Positions 10,027-55,591 of a stretch of 64,000 nucleotides of DNA are shown one piece after another. A model generated the notes under the pieces. The model did no database searches. It was not told where the DNA came from and saw only the letters and a program-made list of their open reading frames with translations. This DNA comes from Candidatus Aenigmatarchaeota archaeon (lineage in GTDB: Archaea; Aenigmatarchaeota; Aenigmatarchaeia; CG10238-14; SCSR01). Where the stretch lies: the NCBI GenBank assembly GCA_038999725.1, contig JAWBWS010000001.1:160001-224000 (forward strand), given 5' to 3'. A program made the translations under genes and the position numbers. Every line of letters starts with the position of its first letter. Position 1 is the first letter of the stretch.

Positions 10027-12729
10027 TTAATTAAAAGCAAAAAACTTTGATTTTATTTCTCCGAAGTAAAAGTTAACCTCTCCGCCACAAACCGTACATT
10101 TACCAACTAGCGGAACCCTTCTGTAGCTTGTGTTGCACTTGAGACAAACTACTCCTTCTACACTAGTGAGTGAAACACTTTCACTTTTCTTATGATTGTC
10201 TATGGCTTCTCCCAATACCATTTGCTTGCCGAGACCAATCAATTTAGTCCTAGGTATACCAATTGCTTCAAAAACTCTTTCTAATGGTGGTAAAATCTGA
10301 CTTTCAATGTAATAACGTGAATCTATTTTCAAACCATGTTTTTTAACATATTCTGGGTCTTCCGCCCTTTCGGAAACCATTTGTGCCCCTTTAACTATAA
10401 CAAACCCTACCCTATCACCAATCGAAGGAATTGTCGTCTCTCCTCTTTTTTTCATCCTCTTCACTAACTCAATGTGTGGTTGAACTCCTTTATATTGGTC
10501 AGGCCTCTTTGAAATTCCTTTTATTATAACAAGTTTTTCCAATGGGATTTGTCCATTCTGTAGTTTTTGTATCACATCTTTGAAATAAGTGAAAGCTTTT
10601 GCTGGATTTTGTTCCCTGAGTAAAATGTTCAGAACAGCCTCTTGTGTCTCGCTGACCAAATCACACCAATCTCTTCTCACAGTTTCTATTCCCTTCATCA
10701 CAATCTCATCTTTATATTGAGAATCAATCTTTTCAAAACTCCACCCAGCATATCTTTTTTTTGTTAGAATTAAAAGTGTTCTAAAAACATTCTCGACTTT
10801 GACTTTTAACTTCCCTTCAAATTTTTCATTTAGAAAATCTGCTATTTGATTGCCAATCTCTATTGCTTTATCTATGTCTCCTGTATCTGTTTTAACCATC
10901 ACAGAATCTGTGTCTCCATAAATCACTCTATACCTTGTGTTACTTTCAACAAGCTTTTTGGTTTCTTGAATGTAATATCTCCCACAACTTGTGATTGCGT
11001 TTGCTATATCCAAAACATAAAGTCTTCCAAGTAAAAATCCTGTATAGCCATAAGAGGCGTTTGCTATTCTTTTAAGTCCCTCTTGGTATGCATCTAAAGC
11101 CCTTTTTCTCACGGGATCTTTTTCAACTTTCATTTGAGCTTTAATCATATTTCTTTCTTTTATCAATCTTTCAAGAGTTTGGGGAATTATCCCTTTTCTA
11201 ATACTTGGTGGAATGAAAGAAGTACCAAATGGTGTTGTTATTGCTTCTACCCCTTCCTTTTTCTCAATCAATAAAGTTGTTGGGCAGATGTTGTAAGAAA
11301 TGAAAATTGAAGGGTACATGCTTGCAAAATCTAAATAAATGACACATGTTGTATGTAAACCAACTTCAGGATCAAGAACGAAAGCTCCTTTAAACCCTTT
11401 CACATCTCTCTCTGCTTTTCTTCTTGCAATCTCCTTTTCAGATGGTTTACAAGGTAGAACAAATCCATTTTTGTCGAACTCCCTTAAAAGTAGATTTTCG
11501 ACTTTTCCAGCTTCTCCGGTATCCAAAGAATCTTGTAATAACAAACCAGAAACTTTGGAAATTCCTATGTATTTGTCTAGAAAGTGTTTTTCTAAAAGTA
11601 ATCTCAAAACAAGCTCAGAATCTCTTCTCGCATAATCTATAAATCTTTTCATCTGCTCTTCATTACCATTCCAAGCAATTGGCATATCTGTGTGAGAAAA
11701 TTCAATTTTTTCTTCACCTAAAAGATATTTTGAGACCTCTCCCAAGCTAAATCTTTTTAGACCTGTGAAAAAACCTCTTCCAGCCATATCTTTTATTATC
11801 CAATATGGGTCTACTATTACCCTTCCAAAAACGGAATTTTTATATCTATTTTCCCCCAACTTTTTCGAAACAAGTGATTTTTCAACACATCTTCCTATAC
11901 TCCTTCTCAATTTATTAATTCTCAATCTCTCGTTGATGTATGGTATGTCAAAATCATTAATGTTATATCCAACTATTATATCAGGATCGAATTTATCAAT
12001 TATTTCTAAAAACTTTTCAAGCATCTCTTTTTCATTCTTAAAAGTTAAAACATCCTTACCTAGTCTTTTGAAATTATTTTTTGCTACTAGAATGAGTGTG
12101 TTACTACCATCAAAAGCCGGGAAAAAAGCCATACTTATTATAGCTATTTGGTTTTCCTCTGGATTTATTATCCCTTCAGAAACTACTTCTATATCCAAGG
12201 CCATATACCTTAGGGGGGCATTCTCTATTTTCTCCACAGGCTCGATTTTTTCCATTTTAATTGATTGATCCACTTTTATACTTTGTGTATGTATTGGTGA
12301 ACCATATACTTTATACCACGACATGCCAAAAAGTGAAAAATCTGCCATAAATCTGTATTTGAAGAGTATGTCTGCCTCAAAAATATCTTCAATAAAGTCC
12401 TTCTTCCTCAAATGCTCCCTTAATGTAACTGTCTTAGATGGATCTTTAAGCACAACTTTCAACATTTCTTTTTTCTTTTCTTGAAAACCTATCGGTAAAT
12501 TTCTCTCTACAATTTCTATGTTTTTTATCTCATTAGTGAAATTCTTCTTAAGTTCATCAATAACTTTTTCTTCCATTCCTTCTTTTGGTAAAATATAAAA
12601 ATATGGATAAAAGCCGTCATAAAAAGCACAAATTGTTCTTCCGTCTTCTGCCTTCCCTAAAAGTCTTATAACAGGACGATTCTCGAGAAGAATGTAATCA
12701 ACATCTAAAAGTTGAAACTCCAATTCCAT
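10027..12729 (-). CDS. polB: Family B DNA polymerase with C-terminal DP2-like C4 Zn finger
   Basis: Exo I/II/III (DIE, YNINDFD, YARRD) and polymerase motifs (DFASMYPS, KRIANASYG, YGDTDS) intact; C-terminal CLKCNTSYRRVPLVGKCTVCGG. Confidence 0.95.
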   Translation of the reverse strand: MELEFQLLDVDYILLENRPVIRLLGKAEDGRTICAFYDGFYPYFYILPKEGMEEKVIDELKKNFTNEIKNIEIVERNLPIGFQEKKKEMLKVVLKDPSKTVTLREHLRKKDFIEDIFEADILFKYRFMADFSLFGMSWYKVYGSPIHTQSIKVDQSIKMEKIEPVEKIENAPLRYMALDIEVVSEGIINPEENQIAIISMAFFPAFDGSNTLILVAKNNFKRLGKDVLTFKNEKEMLEKFLEIIDKFDPDIIVGYNINDFDIPYINERLRINKLRRSIGRCVEKSLVSKKLGENRYKNSVFGRVIVDPYWIIKDMAGRGFFTGLKRFSLGEVSKYLLGEEKIEFSHTDMPIAWNGNEEQMKRFIDYARRDSELVLRLLLEKHFLDKYIGISKVSGLLLQDSLDTGEAGKVENLLLREFDKNGFVLPCKPSEKEIARRKAERDVKGFKGAFVLDPEVGLHTTCVIYLDFASMYPSIFISYNICPTTLLIEKKEGVEAITTPFGTSFIPPSIRKGIIPQTLERLIKERNMIKAQMKVEKDPVRKRALDAYQEGLKRIANASYGYTGFLLGRLYVLDIANAITSCGRYYIQETKKLVESNTRYRVIYGDTDSVMVKTDTGDIDKAIEIGNQIADFLNEKFEGKLKVKVENVFRTLLILTKKRYAGWSFEKIDSQYKDEIVMKGIETVRRDWCDLVSETQEAVLNILLREQNPAKAFTYFKDVIQKLQNGQIPLEKLVIIKGISKRPDQYKGVQPHIELVKRMKKRGETTIPSIGDRVGFVIVKGAQMVSERAEDPEYVKKHGLKIDSRYYIESQILPPLERVFEAIGIPRTKLIGLGKQMVLGEAIDNHKKSESVSLTSVEGVVCLKCNTSYRRVPLVGKCTVCGGEVNFYFGEIKSKFFAFN

Positions 12730-12737
12730 GTTTTATT

Positions 12738-13886
12738 TTATATCAAATCAATTTTTAAATTTTCTCGTGTTTTAAGATTTACAATCCAAAATATTCTTTC
12801 AGATGAACCAGAAGAAATTATTGTTGTTCCTTTATAGTTGATTAAACCTGAAGTACCGAAATCAAAGGATAAGAAAATATCTGGAACTGGTTCTATCAAA
12901 AAACAATCTTCTTCTAAAACTCTTTCAATTGTAAAAATTGGGTTGAGATGCCTTTTCTTGAGTAAGTTTAACATTATTTCTTCTGTTCTCTCTCCCAAAA
13001 TATTTTTATAGGGAGAAAACATTTTTCCATCACAAAGAAGTAAATTTACCTTACCATTGATTAAGAGAAAGGCTGGTGGTGAAAAAGAAGTTACATCTTC
13101 GAGTTCTAGTTTTTCTTTAGTTATGAGAATTAACTTTGTGTTGATTGGTAATTTCTCTTTCAACTCTTCTATTTGTTTTTTCTCATAAGATTCTACAAAT
13201 AAAAAAATCAATTTTTTGTAATTAATTTTTGAAATTTCTTCCAAAATCTTTTTTTCATATTCTTTTATCCACTTCCCTAAAATGAAGAAACAGTAAACAT
13301 CTTCCTCTAAATTAGCGACTTTTCTCCTCAAAGGTACATCTGGCCACAAAACATTTGTAACTTCAATCTTATCATTTGTTTTTTCACAAACAAGCCCCAC
13401 AACTTCATCTTGAACAATTTGCCCAAAAAAGTTGTTTTTAAAGAAAACTGAAATTTCACCAGTGAAATCCTCTACAACAGCAGATTTGTTTTCTTTATTA
13501 ATATCTCTCACCATCACTATCAGAGAAAACTTTTTTGTTTTCTCTGTTATCTTGTTTATAGAAATCAAATTAACTATATCCATCCTGTAAGAAAAGAATG
13601 ATTTGATTTTCTCATATCTCTCTAATAAAATTCTTGAAATATCATCAACTGAAAAATTTTTTACATTCAAGGCTTTTTTCTTAATTTCTTTGATTTCAAC
13701 TTCTTCCAAAATAGATTTAATTAAATCTATTTTGACCACAGGAGGAACTTCCATTTTAACAATTTTTTCAAGAAAGATTTTAACTTGTTCAGGATTTCTT
13801 GAAAAATAATCCAAACTATCTTGATCAATCATCAAACCTCTCTTTAAAAAAATATCCACAATTTTTTCTTTTTCCATAGAAACCAA
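12738..13886 (-). CDS. Inactivated PolD small subunit (DP1)-like / B-subunit-like protein
   Basis: DP1-like OB fold (VEDFTGEI, DEVVG, WPDVP) and LLKKRHLNP, VPDIF, YKGTTIISSG segments; metal-binding DxH and GHxH motifs replaced. Confidence 0.8.
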   Translation of the reverse strand: MVSMEKEKIVDIFLKRGLMIDQDSLDYFSRNPEQVKIFLEKIVKMEVPPVVKIDLIKSILEEVEIKEIKKKALNVKNFSVDDISRILLERYEKIKSFFSYRMDIVNLISINKITEKTKKFSLIVMVRDINKENKSAVVEDFTGEISVFFKNNFFGQIVQDEVVGLVCEKTNDKIEVTNVLWPDVPLRRKVANLEEDVYCFFILGKWIKEYEKKILEEISKINYKKLIFLFVESYEKKQIEELKEKLPINTKLILITKEKLELEDVTSFSPPAFLLINGKVNLLLCDGKMFSPYKNILGERTEEIMLNLLKKRHLNPIFTIERVLEEDCFLIEPVPDIFLSFDFGTSGLINYKGTTIISSGSSERIFWIVNLKTRENLKIDLI

Positions 13887-13894
13887 AGAAAATA

Positions 13895-14152
13895 TTATCT
13901 TTTTAATATATAAACAAGAATTCCTACCTTCTCTTTATCTTTTGAATGGGGTAAGGCTTTAACAATAACTTGATTATTTTTAACCAATTCATCTAAATAT
14001 TTTTGAATCGTGTTCCAACTTAAATTCTTGTTAAACTTTTTTGAGATAAGCATCTTTATTGAAGAGGTGGTTAAAGGTGTTTGAGTATTTGAGAGAACAT
14101 CTAAAATTAAAAATTTTACTTGCTCTCTCAGACTTCTTCTTCCTCTTTTCAT
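13895..14152 (-). CDS. Small winged-helix protein
   Basis: wHTH pattern with LSWNTIQKYL; paralog of 14805..15032. Confidence 0.7.
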   Translation of the reverse strand: MKRGRRSLREQVKFLILDVLSNTQTPLTTSSIKMLISKKFNKNLSWNTIQKYLDELVKNNQVIVKALPHSKDKEKVGILVYILKR

Positions 14153-14175: not shown

Positions 14176-14808
14176 TTAAAAGGTAATAATTGATTTTTCT
14201 GTTCTAACAAATGGCACAGGACTTGTGTTTGATATCGCCTTTTTAAGATAACCACGCTTCTCTAAATTTTTTAACCTATGATAAAATGTTTGATATCTAA
14301 GACCGAAGATGTGGGCATCTAATAGAAAAATAGGTTTTTCTCTTGCATACTCTAAAATCTTCAAATCTATTTCATCCAAAGGTCTTGAATCATTGTTTTT
14401 TCGTTTAAATGATTTTTTTATAAGTGAAGTTGGATTGTAATAATAAAAGACTTTATTTTCAGCATCTTTAATAATGGTAACTTGTTTTTCATCAATCAGA
14501 ATGATACCTAGTTTCTTTCTTAAATTCTCCAGTTCAGGGTTAATTGTCAACATGTTAATAAATGTGTTAAGAAATATAGGAGGTGCACATAAAAAAACAT
14601 GGGAAAAGTCGGTAAAATAACTGATAATCTCCCCAAGTGTATTTTTTACATCTGATTCATCACCTTTTACTTCCACACAGTACCAAAAATTTCCTTTTTT
14701 AAATACAAAATCTGGTTTACAATGAGGGAATTCCCTTTCTGTAAAAAATTCTATTTTATTTTCCTGTAGATATTTTAGAAAAATAGATTTTGCTTCTTCC
14801 TCATTCAT
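14176..14808 (-). CDS. PD-(D/E)XK nuclease-fold protein with C-terminal wHTH
   Basis: E...PDFV...VEVKG motif; C-terminal LDEIDLKIL...FYHRLKNLEKRGYL. Confidence 0.7.
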   Translation of the reverse strand: MNEEEAKSIFLKYLQENKIEFFTEREFPHCKPDFVFKKGNFWYCVEVKGDESDVKNTLGEIISYFTDFSHVFLCAPPIFLNTFINMLTINPELENLRKKLGIILIDEKQVTIIKDAENKVFYYYNPTSLIKKSFKRKNNDSRPLDEIDLKILEYAREKPIFLLDAHIFGLRYQTFYHRLKNLEKRGYLKKAISNTSPVPFVRTEKSIITF

Positions 14809-15032
14809 TTTTTCAACCTGTAAGTAGTAGTTTTACCAACACGTATTTCCTCTACTTTTTGTGCATCTCTTAAGGCTATTAAATATTTTTGAATAGTATG
14901 CCATGAAAGGCCTGGTCTTTCGAGCTTTTTTGCAACAGTTTTCCTTATAAATTCTGAAGTGTGAGGTAAATTATCATCCAAACAACTCAATATCACAAGC
15001 TCAAAAAATTTTCCATAAGGTCTTCTTGACAT
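14805..15032 (-). CDS. Small winged-helix protein
   Basis: LSWHTIQKYL helix followed by a beta-wing (VGKTTTYRL). Confidence 0.7.
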   Translation of the reverse strand: MSRRPYGKFFELVILSCLDDNLPHTSEFIRKTVAKKLERPGLSWHTIQKYLIALRDAQKVEEIRVGKTTTYRLKK

Positions 15033-15335: not shown

Positions 15336-15689
15336 TCATAAAAATAATTCCTTAACTTTTAAAAGAAGTTCCCTAATCCCTTCGACATCCCTTACAGGCA
15401 TATAGATTCTTGGATAAGTTTCAACTTTCTCAATAAGATTTAGTTTGGCAAGGGTATCTAACCTTTTTCTTAAGGTTTCTAGGTTTATTTGCACCCCTTC
15501 ACTTCTCAATTCAGAAAAAAGCTGTTGAACATAATAACAAGTGGTATCATTCGGAAACTTTTTGTTATTAAAATAGAATTTTTGTAAAATCCTTATCATA
15601 ACAACATCAAAATTAAGAAATATTGAAGAAAGTTTCTTTTTTGTATTCACATCTTCCTGTATAGGAATGTTAACAATTGAGGCGTTCAT
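15336..15689 (-). CDS. Winged-helix DNA-binding protein
   Basis: INLETLRKRLDTLAKLNLIEKVETYPRIY wHTH pattern. Confidence 0.65.
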   Translation of the reverse strand: MNASIVNIPIQEDVNTKKKLSSIFLNFDVVMIRILQKFYFNNKKFPNDTTCYYVQQLFSELRSEGVQINLETLRKRLDTLAKLNLIEKVETYPRIYMPVRDVEGIRELLLKVKELFL

Positions 15690-15742: not shown

Positions 15743-16417
15743 TTAAACTAAATTAATAATTCTTGCTTCAACTTTTTTATTTTTAATTGTAGCAAAGCCA
15801 CAATATCCTTCCGGAAACCTACCAGCATTGATTAATTTTGTTCCATTTATTTCATCAATGCCTCTTGCTTCATGTATATGAGCACTTATCGCTAAAACAG
15901 GTTTAAATTTTTCAATAACTTCTCTTACTGCTTCTGATCCAACATGGGCACCAGTATGAACAACATCAACTCTTGTTCTTGCTGGAGGTACATGGGTAAC
16001 CTGAACTTTAACTTCACTTTCTTTAATCATTTCAAATGCTTTTTCTAATCCTTTTCTTATTTCATCTTCAGATGGCTCTAGAGGGGTGCCAAAAGGTGTT
16101 CTAGCCCCTCCAAAACCGTAAAAACCAATATTATCAATAATTTTTCCTTTTCCATGAAGACTTATTCCTTCTTTTTCCAAGATTTCTATTATATCTCTAT
16201 CCCAATTTCCAGGCAAAGCTAAGATGGGTTTGTTTAAAGTTTTAAGTTCTTCAATAATCACTTTCGAGATATCTAGAGAAGAAAATCCTTTTGGTGGCAC
16301 ATCTAGAAAGTCCCCTGGAAACACGATAACATCAAAATTAAACATGTTAACTTTATCAATATATTCCATTAAATTTTCTACATCATTATGGATGTCGCTT
16401 ATTATCAAGATATCCAT
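15743..16417 (-). CDS. Calcineurin-like metallophosphoesterase
   Basis: SDIH, GDF, PGNWD, THVPP and AHIHE motifs. Confidence 0.9.
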   Translation of the reverse strand: MDILIISDIHNDVENLMEYIDKVNMFNFDVIVFPGDFLDVPPKGFSSLDISKVIIEELKTLNKPILALPGNWDRDIIEILEKEGISLHGKGKIIDNIGFYGFGGARTPFGTPLEPSEDEIRKGLEKAFEMIKESEVKVQVTHVPPARTRVDVVHTGAHVGSEAVREVIEKFKPVLAISAHIHEARGIDEINGTKLINAGRFPEGYCGFATIKNKKVEARIINLV

Positions 16418-25790: not shown

Positions 25791-25875
25791 TGGGGTTGCT
25801 GGGATTTGAACCCAGATTGCCAGCGCTCTCTCTATTACCCGAGGCTGGTGTCCTACCAAGTTAGACTACAACCCC
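25791..25875 (-). tRNA. tRNA-Pro(CGG) with 12-nt intron at 37/38 (25826-25837)
   Basis: Acceptor GGGGTTG/CAACCCC, anticodon arm CCAGC-CT-CGG-G|intron|C-GCTGG, T-loop TTCAAAT. Confidence 0.92.
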
Positions 25876-38337: not shown

Positions 38338-38502
38338 TGCAGGGGGTGGGATTCGAACCCACGAACGGACTAACCGATCAGGTAACTAATACTCTCATCA
38401 TCCATAACTCAGGGCTTAAGTCTGGAGAGCATCTTAAGCTCACGCGAATATTGTTTTAAACAATATTCTCTGACGCCTTTGACCAGACTTGGCTACCCCT
38501 GC
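38338..38502 (-). tRNA. tRNA-Leu(TAA) with two introns (30/31: 38440-38469; 37/38: 38384-38432)
   Basis: Acceptor GCAGGGG/CCCCTGC, D arm GCC..GGC, long variable arm CGG/CCG, T-loop TTCGAAT; removing both inserts gives TCAGG-CT-TAA-GA-CCTGA. Confidence 0.88.
38384..38432 (-). ncRNA. Putative intron-encoded box C/D guide RNA
   Basis: CTTAAGCC guide, CTGA (box D), 7-nt spacer, ATGATGA (box C), enclosed by a TGCTCTC/GAGAGTA stem. Confidence 0.6.
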
Positions 38503-41014: not shown

Positions 41015-41112
41015 TGGACCGGCCGGGATTCGAACCCGGAGCCTCTTCATAGCAGTTAAACTCATGCCTTTTCCACAATTAAGGAAGCGATCTACCATTG
41101 ATCTACCGGCCC
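41015..41112 (-). tRNA. tRNA-Ala(GGC) with two non-canonical introns (33/34: 41069-41080; 39/40: 41049-41062)
   Basis: Acceptor GGGCCGG/CCGGTCC with G3:U70; removing both inserts gives CTTCC-TT-GGC-AT-GGAAG; both inserts fit bulge-helix-bulge geometry. Confidence 0.88.
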
Positions 41113-53107: not shown

Positions 53108-55591
53108 TTATTCATCCTTTTTAAAAAAGCTTAATATTTTTTTCTGTTTCTTTTCATTTAAAATTTCCTCTTTTGTTATTCCAAGAGCTTTTAAGACACG
53201 CATGCTAGCAGGAAGAATTTGATGATGAGTGTAATATTCAGGATCATACTCACCAGGTTTGACATCTTCAACAGGTTCGGCTCTATCTGAAATTGAGCCA
53301 GATCCCTTTACTATCACAAAACCTATAATACTTCCCTCACCTACAAGCTTTCCTCTAGCTCTTGCTTTCTGTGCTGCTTTTACATGAGGCCCGATTTGCT
53401 CATATTGACTTAATGGGCGAGTAATTTGCTCAAAGATTGTTAATTCTTCTAACGGAATTTTTCCCTCTTTAATTTTTTTGATAGTTTCTCTCACAAGCTG
53501 GATAGCTTTGTCAGGATTTTTGTCTCTCAAAATCGTGATTAATACATCTCTTTGAATTTTCTTACTCAATTCACACCAATCTCTCCTTACTGCTTCATAT
53601 CCTCTTATTTCAATGTTGCCATTGTAATCTAGAAGTGCATATCTTTTTTTAGCTCCAACCTCACCTTTTTCTCTTGCAACAAATATTCCACCTTCGTACA
53701 AATCTCTGAATTCCAACTCTATTATACCCGGCAGCTTATTATTGACTTTTTCTACAAATTTTCTACCCACCTCAATCAATTTTTCTCTCGATTTTTCCGG
53801 ATATTTTGCCATTAGCGAATCTGTATCACCGTAAATTATTTCTAGACCAAATTTTTTGGCTTCATCAATCACAGTTGTAATATACTTTCTACCCCATGCA
53901 GCTGTTGCAGCACCACATTCCCTTTTATACCATTTTGCACCTACAAAACCAAAATACCCATAAGAGGCATTTGCAATTATCTTTAAAGCATATTGAAGAT
54001 TGTCCAACTTCTTCCATTCTTCACTGTTTTTTTCAAGTTTTTTCATCATCTTTTTGATTTCCAACCTTTTTTTAATCAGCTCTTCCAAATGTTTTGGTAT
54101 GAACCCTTTGTTTTTTATACAAAAATGCCATTTGGTCTCCGGTACTGCATTTTTTTCTTTACATTCTTCATGATTGCAGTTTAGAGTTTCTGGGGAAATG
54201 TTATGAGAAACTATTATCGTTGGATACAAACTTCTAAAATCAAAAACCAAGATGTCTGAATGAATTCCTTTTTTTGGCTCAATCACTATTGCCCCCTTGT
54301 AAGCTGGGGACATTTTCCTCTTCTCTATTTCTTCTGTTTTTGGTCTGTTTGGTATAATCACATCATCAAGAAAAGCCCTTCTCATGTAAAAAGCTTCTAC
54401 AAGCTGGGAATAGGTGTTTCTACATACATCAAACGGTAAAAGGCCCGTCAACCTACTAATAGCAAAAATTTGTGGTAATATCAGCTCAGAAAGTTTGAAA
54501 GTTAATATGGAATCATGTAAGCTGTATTCAGCTAGTCTTTCTAAACCCTTTTTCTTAGTCCAAATTTCAACCATTTCCTTGTATTCCATCTCTTTTTTAC
54601 CTATTCCAAGTAACTCTTCTGCAACCTCATTTAAAGTTAAAACCTCACTTTTCAAGCTTGTTGATAGGATGTGATCAATAAAATTGAATAGGTCTATGTG
54701 TACTCTACCTTTAATTTTGGTTGAGCTTACTCTCCCCCTTCTAACTAAATGTATTGGAGAATTATCTCTCCCAAGTTTTAAGGGAACTTTCAGTTCTTCT
54801 GCCCTTTCTTTAAGTTTAGGAAAATCAAAATTGTCACCATTATAAGTGCATATGAAATCAGGATCCTCCTTTTCCACAATTTCCAAAAACCTTTCTATTA
54901 TTTCTCTCTCTTCTTTGAGAGATTCTACATAATCTGGTTGGTTTTCCCAACACTCGGAAGTTAAGACCTTTTTCATCCCTCTGCTTGAAACAAGACTTAA
55001 CATAATCAGTTTCGATTTTCCATTTTCCTCTACAAATTCTGTATCAAAAGCTAAAACATTTAGCTCAACATCTGTTGGTAAACTTTCTTGTTTTACTACT
55101 TTTATAGAGTTGGCTTTAATTATGTAATCCGCTTTATAGTTTTCTTTATTTTCTATTTTCTTCCCATCAACTTTAATCCAGTTCATAGGCTCAATTTGTT
55201 TGTCTATCAAGTAACGCTTGTAGAAAGGAATATCATACTCGTAAGTTTCTTCTACATCTTCCAATTCCTTCACAATATTTCTGATGTTTTGAATTTTCCT
55301 TGGATTGTCAATTACCAATTTTAAAATTTTTATCTTCTCGAGTTGTAATTTTTTTTCCGTTGTTATAACTTCAACTATCTTGATGTTTACATCTTTTGTA
55401 TTAACCTCTTCAATTTTTTTCTTAACCTCTTCAATTTTGTTTTTCTTAGGCAACACATAAAAGTATGGGTAAAAATCTTGGTCTAGAACCAAACAGTTTT
55501 TACCTTTAGAATCTTTACAATAAAGCCTAACAACAGGTTTTTCTTCCATTACAGTATAGTCGACATCTAAAAGAAACAAATTTTCTTCCAA
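53108..55591 (-). CDS. polB: Family B DNA polymerase (canonical PolB3-like)
   Basis: YEYDIPFYKRYLID, FDTE, YNGDNFD, DFRSLYPT, KIIANASYGY and YGDTDS motifs; C-terminal PIP box QKKILSFF. Confidence 0.96.
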   Translation of the reverse strand: MEENLFLLDVDYTVMEEKPVVRLYCKDSKGKNCLVLDQDFYPYFYVLPKKNKIEEVKKKIEEVNTKDVNIKIVEVITTEKKLQLEKIKILKLVIDNPRKIQNIRNIVKELEDVEETYEYDIPFYKRYLIDKQIEPMNWIKVDGKKIENKENYKADYIIKANSIKVVKQESLPTDVELNVLAFDTEFVEENGKSKLIMLSLVSSRGMKKVLTSECWENQPDYVESLKEEREIIERFLEIVEKEDPDFICTYNGDNFDFPKLKERAEELKVPLKLGRDNSPIHLVRRGRVSSTKIKGRVHIDLFNFIDHILSTSLKSEVLTLNEVAEELLGIGKKEMEYKEMVEIWTKKKGLERLAEYSLHDSILTFKLSELILPQIFAISRLTGLLPFDVCRNTYSQLVEAFYMRRAFLDDVIIPNRPKTEEIEKRKMSPAYKGAIVIEPKKGIHSDILVFDFRSLYPTIIVSHNISPETLNCNHEECKEKNAVPETKWHFCIKNKGFIPKHLEELIKKRLEIKKMMKKLEKNSEEWKKLDNLQYALKIIANASYGYFGFVGAKWYKRECGAATAAWGRKYITTVIDEAKKFGLEIIYGDTDSLMAKYPEKSREKLIEVGRKFVEKVNNKLPGIIELEFRDLYEGGIFVAREKGEVGAKKRYALLDYNGNIEIRGYEAVRRDWCELSKKIQRDVLITILRDKNPDKAIQLVRETIKKIKEGKIPLEELTIFEQITRPLSQYEQIGPHVKAAQKARARGKLVGEGSIIGFVIVKGSGSISDRAEPVEDVKPGEYDPEYYTHHQILPASMRVLKALGITKEEILNEKKQKKILSFFKKDE

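Follow-up and report, generated by a model that had tools for sequence, protein, structure and literature searches.

A family-B DNA polymerase with a DP2-derived zinc finger encoded beside an inactivated DP1 in Candidatus Aenigmatarchaeota, and its probable replacement of PolD

Analyzing a 64,000-nucleotide stretch of a Candidatus Aenigmatarchaeota genome (contig JAWBWS010000001.1 of assembly GCA_038999725.1, positions 160,001 to 224,000; hereafter the window), we examined two adjacent minus-strand genes, one related to DP1, the small subunit of archaeal PolD, and one encoding a family-B DNA polymerase (PolB) of 900 amino acids. The dp1-like gene occupies 12738..13886 and the intact polB gene 10027..12729, and the operon junction between the dp1-like stop codon TAA and the polB ATG is a spacer of 8 nt, aataaaac (12730..12737, minus strand), so that the distance given in an earlier note on this DNA holds. 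The longest dp1-like open reading frame (ORF) starts from a TTG at 13886 and gives 382 amino acids, and an ATG at 13877 would give 379. Because its homologs and the database copy of the protein (P0001; 379 amino acids, 100 % identical) begin at MEKEK, the true start is probably the ATG. A winged-helix gene ends 17 nt before this ATG, so the operon may also include genes further upstream.

The small subunit, a shortened form of DP1, retains the N-terminal helical domain together with the oligonucleotide-binding (OB) fold and the phosphoesterase fold. It matches three NCBIfam DP1 models (2.2e-28 for NF003118, 2.1e-23 and 3.2e-6), though far under their equivalog cut-offs (99.5 versus 445 bits). 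It also matches solved DP1, at 7.9e-8 as a single sequence and at 4e-35 as a 28-sequence family profile. That profile finds eukaryotic Pol31/POLD2 only at E about 0.1; thus, of the two relationships that the earlier note had wanted compared, profiles recover the one to DP1 and not the one to eukaryotic B-subunits. The protein has no Pfam match at gathering level and no match to DNA_pol_E_B (PF04042) at E <= 1, and a precomputed PF04042 match is present in 19 of 120 database relatives, these being the matches listed, the best 120 of 189.

An AlphaFold 2 model built on the 28-sequence alignment (predicted local distance difference test, pLDDT, 87.7; predicted template modelling score, pTM, 0.79) comprises an N-terminal domain of four helices, an OB barrel and an alpha/beta sandwich, the arrangement of a canonical DP1 with its calcineurin-like phosphoesterase fold. 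The DP1N-like domain covers about residues 1-65 (13692..13886, minus strand), with helices at 6-15, 22-30, 33-42 and 53-60; this region is conserved in the family alignment, and the NF003118 match begins in it, at residue 4, which is model position 3. The OB fold covers about residues 115-182 (13341..13544, minus strand), where the modelled beta strands span residues 119-180, invariant columns cluster and the sequence aligns to the OB region of solved DP1. The phosphoesterase-like domain follows at about residues 195-382 (12741..13304, minus strand). Foldseek places P. abyssi DP1 first (E 1.2e-20, TM 0.67), with human POLD2 (2.4e-17), Dpb2/POLE2 (down to 1.1e-13) and POLA2 (3.6e-13) at lower ranks; model, profile and fold therefore all bear out the earlier claim that the 382-residue protein is related to DP1 and the B-subunits. 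Of the 17 columns invariant in the 28 sequences, most belong to the OB fold or the C-terminal half, and they include the acidic OB residues E139, D140 and D160; LLKKRHLNP, VPDIF, NYKGTT and NLKTRE are conserved in the C-terminal domain. The landmarks from which DP1 ancestry had been read in the earlier note (VEDFTG, DEVVG, WPDVP, LLKKRHLNP, VPDIF and YKGTTIISSG) are all in the translation.

Absent from this fold are the five phosphoesterase motifs of the Mre11-like proofreading site. Aligned with solved P. abyssi DP1 (6hms), the window protein has FILGKW in place of LISDIH and SFDFG in place of MGHVH, and the FFILG and FLSFDF strings that had been noticed at the metal-motif sites are indeed there. 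As a canonical reference we used four DP1s of a PolD-retaining family of the same phylum (f11) and one from contig C64 of genome G090. These have DxH, GDxxD, GNHD, H and GHxH, that is, all nine metal and catalytic residues (DHDDNHHHH), whereas the window protein has 0/9, with the pattern G-EYEKDDG. Short DP1s of this kind are also missing stretches behind motif II and motif III, about 20 residues in each case, and some 13 residues close to the C-terminus.

Judged from its domain matches, the large subunit is a family-B polymerase complete in both its exonuclease and its polymerase part (DNA_pol_B, PF00136, 1e-117, residues 401-823; exo1, PF03104, 1.1e-33, residues 115-314). What we take to be Exo I-III and motifs A-C are legible in its translation. 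Of the solved structures, the catalytic subunit of human Pol delta matches best (5.7e-114, 385 bits); Thermococcales PolB reaches about 332 bits, Pol alpha about 261 bits and Pol zeta about 208 bits. The putative placement of this PolB in the B6 group, as a Pol-delta-like polymerase of the published B6-aenigma1 kind, draws on the literature together with this best solved match. The earlier statement that an intact PolB ends in CLKCNTSYRRVPLVGKCTVCGG is correct, since this string is present in the translation of 10027..12729.

By profile comparison, the last ~45 residues of this polymerase are a contiguous fragment of DP2, the catalytic subunit of PolD. Residues 858-887 match three NCBIfam DP2 models at their C-terminal zinc finger (NF011302, 3e-7; NF003103, 3.2e-6; TIGR00354, 1.6e-5), within a tail that runs from residue 858 to 900 (10030..10158, minus strand) and contains one C4 zinc finger (C862, C865, C878 and C881; 10087..10146, minus strand) with YRRVP, the putative docking loop, between the two Cys pairs. 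We built a profile from 24 complete tails, the window and 23 relatives; six PolBs truncated at contig ends, a masked tail and an exact duplicate were excluded. The four Cys and a single Gly are constant in all 24 tails, and R41 and P43 almost constant. Against solved structures, the profile finds Zn-finger III (Zn-III) of DP2 (6knb_B residues 1127-1156 at 1.3e-9; 6hms_B and 6t8h_B at 2.8e-8), then unrelated zinc ribbons only at E >= 0.008, and no Pol alpha or Pol epsilon C-terminal domain (CTD) among the PDB matches at E <= 10. Hence the PolD-type zinc finger proposed for this PolB is confirmed, and the comparison suggested with both DP2 and eukaryotic CTDs succeeds for DP2 alone.

An hhalign comparison with five DP2 C-termini, taken from a family of this phylum that retains DP2, aligns the 24 tails contiguously over 45 columns (probability 98.4 %, E 5.9e-15), so the tail consists of Zn-III and the next ~15 residues. 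It ends before the DP2 helical region, the internal PCNA-interacting (PIP) motif (iPIP), the linker and the C-terminal PIP (cPIP), and has no recognizable canonical PIP box. We also considered a remnant of the cPIP, an element described for P. abyssi DP2 (PMC7101311). A 3-sequence MAFFT alignment paired the terminal KSKFFAFN with the extreme C-terminal PIP box KKAKQFSLSSF of DP2 across a 39-residue deletion; the profile-profile comparison instead aligns GEIKSKFF to EGTISKYL, and the remnant was rejected because the tail aligns contiguously to Zn-III and the residues that follow it. The tail likewise departs from eukaryotic CTDs, which have two Cys motifs flanking a helical bundle, since it has a single C4 motif within its ~45 residues.

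The genes for this zinc-finger-bearing PolB (hereafter PolB-ZnF) are sometimes enlarged or interrupted in relatives. One (L037:6852-10766) encodes 1304 amino acids, and a contig-cut ORF (L027:672-2864) terminates in an intein-like stretch, GFFEGDG, presumably of LAGLIDADG type.

To place the pair among its relatives, species-representative genomes were scanned with an 11-sequence alignment, which gave 318 pattern matches, of which 34 were confirmed as related loci. In 31 of these 34, the dp1-like gene is immediately followed by a PolB ORF on the same strand, so the two genes do co-occur in relatives, and the refuting case named in the earlier note, a failure to co-occur, does not arise. The DP1-like ORF followed by PolB is called in 30/34; where both are called, the gaps are 1-82 nt, apart from an apparent 49-nt overlap in the masked record L039. 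One exception, L035, is a contig-edge fragment with a canonical-type DP1 in a Thermoplasmata record; the other two, L033 and L038, are weighed below. The ratio of nonsynonymous to synonymous substitution rates (dN/dS), taken over five pairs for each gene, lies at 0.14-0.26 for the DP1 derivative, as against 0.05-0.08 for PolB, values that are approximate because dS is near saturation. On this evolutionary evidence the dead small subunit is under purifying selection.

These data bear on whether the dp1-like gene is a decaying relic without function, next to a PolB that works alone, their adjacency being merely historical. All nine catalytic or metal residues are gone, the phosphoesterase domain is shortened compared with canonical DP1, and dN of the DP1 derivative is about 2.3-3 times that of PolB, as a relic would have it. 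However, the window has an intact ORF, which together with PolB is called in nearly all related loci, its dN/dS is low, 17 columns are invariant across 28 sequences, the fold is predicted with confidence, and binding has been reported for relatives (PMC12680538). We therefore consider a functionless relic extremely improbable.

The genome itself (729,769 bp in 9 contigs, 93 % complete) appears to lack PolD. The DP2 N-terminal domain (PF03833) and PF04042 have 0 matches in it, the full DP2 model TIGR00354 matches the PolB tail and otherwise gives one weak match (E 0.012), and the DP1 model matches only the 12738..13886 gene. A separate canonical PolD elsewhere in the genome, which the earlier note had expected, was thus not found in DP1 and DP2 model searches of this ~93 % complete assembly, and the gene downstream of the dp1-like gene, where a canonical DP1 would have a DP2 partner, encodes PolB. 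The host, an Aenigmatarchaeota genome in which no DP2 was found at this completeness, is of the kind from which B6-aenigma1 was described. Since no canonical DP1 or DP2 was found, the pair takes the place of PolD instead of supplementing it, and we conclude that dp1 and polB are very probably a co-transcribed pair encoding a two-subunit polymerase that has replaced PolD in an Aenigmatarchaeota-type genome.

Across the phylum, DP2 was found in 8 of 151 sampled genomes, this one included in the sample. Seven of the eight make up all 7/7 genomes of family f11; the remaining one belongs to the window's own family, where it is alone among 31. The four f11 genomes examined have canonical-size DP1s with 9/9 residues and a single PolB of ~770 amino acids with a PIP-like QxxLxxF end and no Cys tail, and this combination, canonical PolD with one canonical PolB, is the expected ancestral state. 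We also considered a replacement of dp2 in situ, downstream of dp1. In f11, dp1 and dp2 lie on different contigs, with dp1 flanked by membrane-protein genes, and the order dp1 then dp2 is seen only on the possibly foreign contig G090:C64; the ancestral order therefore gives in-situ replacement no support.

The genome has two PolBs, both within the window, the second being an 827-residue canonical polymerase (53108..55591, minus strand) with a C-terminal PIP box, QKKILSFF, and no Cys tail. Its presence raises an alternative, in which the complex forms but is not the main replicase: the canonical PolB would carry out bulk synthesis, leaving the PolB-ZnF/DP1 pair a specialized role in initiation, on one strand or in repair. 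The second gene is intact and has the canonical PIP box that is not recognizable in the PolB-ZnF tail, and two polymerases share labour in many archaea, as reported in PMC13136892. On the other hand, PolD, which this pair replaces, is reported to be the essential replicase in the archaea tested (PMC4065339, PMC7101311), and of the two paired genes PolB-ZnF is under the tighter constraint. Moreover, f11, which retains DP2, also has one canonical PolB, so the canonical PolB appears to be the constant partner, with PolB-ZnF/DP1 in the PolD slot. Such a division of labour is an unlikely reading.

How a PolD replacement could hold together is suggested by PolD itself. Its Zn-III basic loop (KxRRxP, R1131/R1132) is reported to fit an electronegative groove at the DP1 OB/phosphoesterase interface, and a 20-residue Zn-III peptide to bind DP1 with nanomolar affinity, with the helical bundle (alpha1', alpha3') also contributing to the DP1-DP2 interface (PMC6355029). 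Given YRRVP in the tail, E139, D140 and D160 in the OB fold and the conserved C-terminal phosphoesterase motifs, we infer a docking of PolB on the DP1 derivative through the zinc finger, whose RRxP loop would sit in an acidic groove at the OB/phosphoesterase interface, as Zn-III does in PolD and the CysB/Zn-2 module does in Pol alpha and Pol epsilon. This derivative would then be a non-catalytic adaptor, like a eukaryotic B-subunit, and proofreading would fall to the PolB exonuclease. The N-terminal domain of the derivative probably links the polymerase to GINS and the Cdc45-MCM-GINS (CMG) helicase. Such a CMG link through a dead subunit is plausible because that domain is retained, the genome encodes GINS and PCNA, and Thermococcus DP1N is reported to bind Gins51C (PMC9023282). 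The PolB-CTD:B-subunit heterodimer proposed in the earlier note thus gains support, also from AlphaFold 3 (AF3) and yeast two-hybrid binding published for Aenigmatarchaeota relatives (PMC12680538).

The tail could also be read as mainly a DNA- or PCNA-binding element, the DP1 derivative then being a separate component such as a GINS-binding factor. The helical bundle, which is part of the PolD interface, is absent from it, in keeping with that reading. Yet the tail keeps the RRxP docking loop, Zn-III alone is reported to bind DP1 tightly in P. horikoshii (PMC6355029), the two-hybrid interaction described for Aenigmatarchaeota is specific to the CTD-bearing PolB (PMC12680538), and the operon coupling is tight. 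We judge a separate role for tail and small subunit to be very unlikely.

Several points weigh against a docked pair that has taken the place of PolD. The absence of DP2 is not proven, because about 7 % of the genome is unassembled, and a second PolB carrying a canonical PIP box might instead be the bulk-replication polymerase. Docking of this particular pair would follow by analogy, as would the GINS link, which is extended from Thermococcus only, and the tail is without the helical bundle that adds to the DP1-DP2 interface of PolD; the Aenigmatarchaeota CTD is moreover described as degenerate, shorter and differently folded (PMC12680538). In 2 of the 34 related loci (L033 and L038) divergent DP1-like genes have no PolB downstream, and the selection estimates come from dS of 1.2-2.0, near saturation. 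Finally, a 3-kb contig of G090, a genome of the window's own family, carries a canonical pair of dp1 and dp2, which reflects either binning contamination or rare coexistence of both systems.

Some particulars of these loci may be recorded. On the G090 contig (C64, corresponding to L041/L050), a dp1 with 9/9 residues stands directly upstream of dp2, and the same genome also carries the system of a dp1-like gene followed by PolB-ZnF (C11 and C30; L045, L053). The two DP1-like genes without PolB (L033:6001-6945 and L038:5102-6034) encode proteins of 310-314 amino acids with 25-29 % identity, and their downstream ORFs encode 226 and 398 amino acids.

Loss of the nuclease site is graded across the family. 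In the 120 database relatives introduced above, the motif-III His is retained in 0/120, the motif-III Asn in 7 and the second Asp of motif II in 3. As many as 6-7 of the nine residues remain in 38 of the 120, most commonly as DHDSEIHHH, and 0-1 remain in 43. We take the motif-III His, in a reading of our own, to correspond to H451 of P. abyssi DP1. A P. abyssi DP1 variant at H451 has been solved (PDB 6hmf), and the title of the entry calls it "proof-reading deficient".

A tree of 30 DP1s (FastTree, LG+gamma, 392 columns, rooted on the canonical DP1s, with four sequences < 300 amino acids and three exact duplicates dropped) places the short DP1s in one clade, within which the 6-of-9 lineages are paraphyletic and the fully eroded groups are nested among them. 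The window clade (support 1.0) falls within a 0.93 clade that has 6-of-9 sisters, L016 (0/9) is sister to L014 (5/9) with support 0.94, and two more eroded clades have support 0.94-0.95. This pattern suggests that motif III was lost once, early and in common, with a shortening of loops, and that complete erosion then took place independently at least three or four times, an order that we treat as a lead and not a result, as the tree was quick and its branches are long. A tentative extension, possible though less than probable, is that Aenigmatarchaeota dp1-polB operons form a natural time series from proofreading nuclease to B-subunit, with a shared early loss of the motif-III Asn-His, later repeated erosion, and a 6-of-9 metal site long kept in some lineages while still paired with PolB-ZnF. 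Should the 6-of-9 forms bind metal, or keep some structural or nuclease function, they would represent surviving intermediates of the step taken by eukaryotic B-subunits.

Upstream of the pair, genes that recur across the 34 related loci were sought with phmmer at E <= 1e-4. The most widespread, an intact YfcE-like metallophosphoesterase of 224 amino acids (15743..16417, minus strand; Pfam Metallophos 3.6e-16), is found in 26/34 loci, a 117-residue ORF of no known family (15336..15689, minus strand) in 19/34, and an 85-residue winged-helix protein (13895..14152, minus strand), which has a 75-residue paralog at 14805..15032, in 17/34. The recurring genes are co-oriented with dp1-polB, and none of this cluster was found beside the canonical dp1 of the PolD-retaining family f11. 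As a further tentative idea, the intact and strongly conserved YfcE-like phosphoesterase might have a functional tie to the polymerase. Elsewhere in the window, Rfam models identify three tRNA genes, all on the minus strand (25791..25875, 85 nt, 58.9 bits; 38338..38502, 165 nt, 38.9 bits; 41015..41112, 98 nt, 53.2 bits), and ARAGORN reports no tRNA in the whole 64,000 nt; the three genes probably contain introns or have unusual architecture.

The system itself is already known, and the window is a further clean instance of it. Kazlauskas et al. in 2020 (NAR, PMC7544198) describe B6-aenigma1, with one motif most like DP2 Zn-III, as well as B6-aenigma2, report that most Aenigmarchaeota are without DP2, define an inactive DP1 group, "Aenigma_GB_GCA_002789635-like", and propose that DP2 was replaced by this PolB, with a link to eukaryotic replicases. 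In 2025, a second study (PMC12680538) reported, from AF3 and yeast two-hybrid, that DP1 binds PolB-DP2CTD in Aenigmatarchaeota and Baldrarchaeia and does not bind canonical PolBs, and reassigned B6-aenigma2 to Baldrarchaeia contamination; a search of the literature from 2020 onward for Aenigmatarchaeota, DNA polymerase and DP1 found only this paper. The caution in the earlier note that novelty needed checking was therefore right: little is left of the supposed novelty of the operon-level partner, since both this partner and the binding are in print and the adjacency statistics alone are apparently unreported. Gene adjacency does not appear in the main text or the partial supplement text of PMC7544198, and the operon or gene-cluster mentions in the main text of PMC12680538 concern other genes, although its supplements and FigShare material may bear on the point; graded decay and the upstream cluster do not appear in the searchable text of either paper. 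What we add is the dp1-polB operon with its upstream cluster, the quantified decay of the active site with its apparently independent repeats, and a PolD-retaining family within the phylum.

Compared with the B6-aenigma1 pair as described (PMC7544198, PMC12680538), the window locus shows no essential difference, its PolB being likewise complete in exonuclease and polymerase domains. Baldrarchaeia provide a second case of DP2-less archaea with DP1 and a PolB-DP2CTD fusion, in which the interaction of PolB3-DP2CTD with DP1 has two-hybrid evidence; their CTD is full-length, DP2-like and resembles the eukaryotic one, in contrast to the shorter Aenigmatarchaeota CTD, "degenerate" in the description of that study (PMC12680538). 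With archaeal PolD (P. abyssi 6hms, 6t8h and 8ppt; T. kodakarensis 6knb), the pair shares the N-terminal, OB and phosphoesterase folds of the small subunit, the Zn-III docking module on the large subunit and, in some genomes such as that of G090:C64, a dp1 upstream of the catalytic gene. It differs from PolD in having a Klenow-type PolB in place of the two-barrel DP2 catalytic core, a DP1 derivative without the Mre11-like nuclease site, and a tail from which parts of the DP2 C-terminus are absent, namely the helical bundle, the iPIP, the linker and the cPIP.

The comparison with the eukaryotic polymerases alpha, delta and epsilon and their B-subunits (POLA2, POLD2 and POLE2; 4y97, 5vbn and 6tny) is one of shared logic: a PolB core, a C-terminal Cys module on a DP1-derived subunit that is inactive, and a PolB exonuclease that proofreads. 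The likeness extends to structure, for human Pol delta is the closest solved relative of the PolB core, and the eukaryotic B-subunits match the DP1 derivative at E 1e-17 to 1e-13; like them it has an inactive phosphoesterase and an OB fold, and its binding to the CTD would follow from that in relatives. The tail, however, has one C4 motif with neither CysA nor a three-helix bundle, the small subunit falls below PF04042, with Pol31/POLD2 reached at E ~0.1 by profile, and this pair has no known accessory subunits. Thus the eukaryote-like character claimed in the earlier note stands for the architecture and not for the parts, both of which are PolD derivatives by sequence rather than eukaryote-type. 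Since this eukaryote-like point was made in 2020 and bench-tested in 2025, the window adds one clean contiguous example, with both genes intact and 8 nt apart in a 730-kb genome, and not a discovery. The operon conservation, the decay of the nuclease site, both graded and seemingly repeated, the PolD-retaining sister family and the exact extent of the DP2 fragment could help in choosing constructs and in dating the inactivation. Importantly, an archaeon with a PolB core docked via a DP2-derived zinc module on an inactivated DP1 would have the architecture of the polymerases alpha, delta and epsilon, an arrangement that bears on the origin of the eukaryotic replicases.

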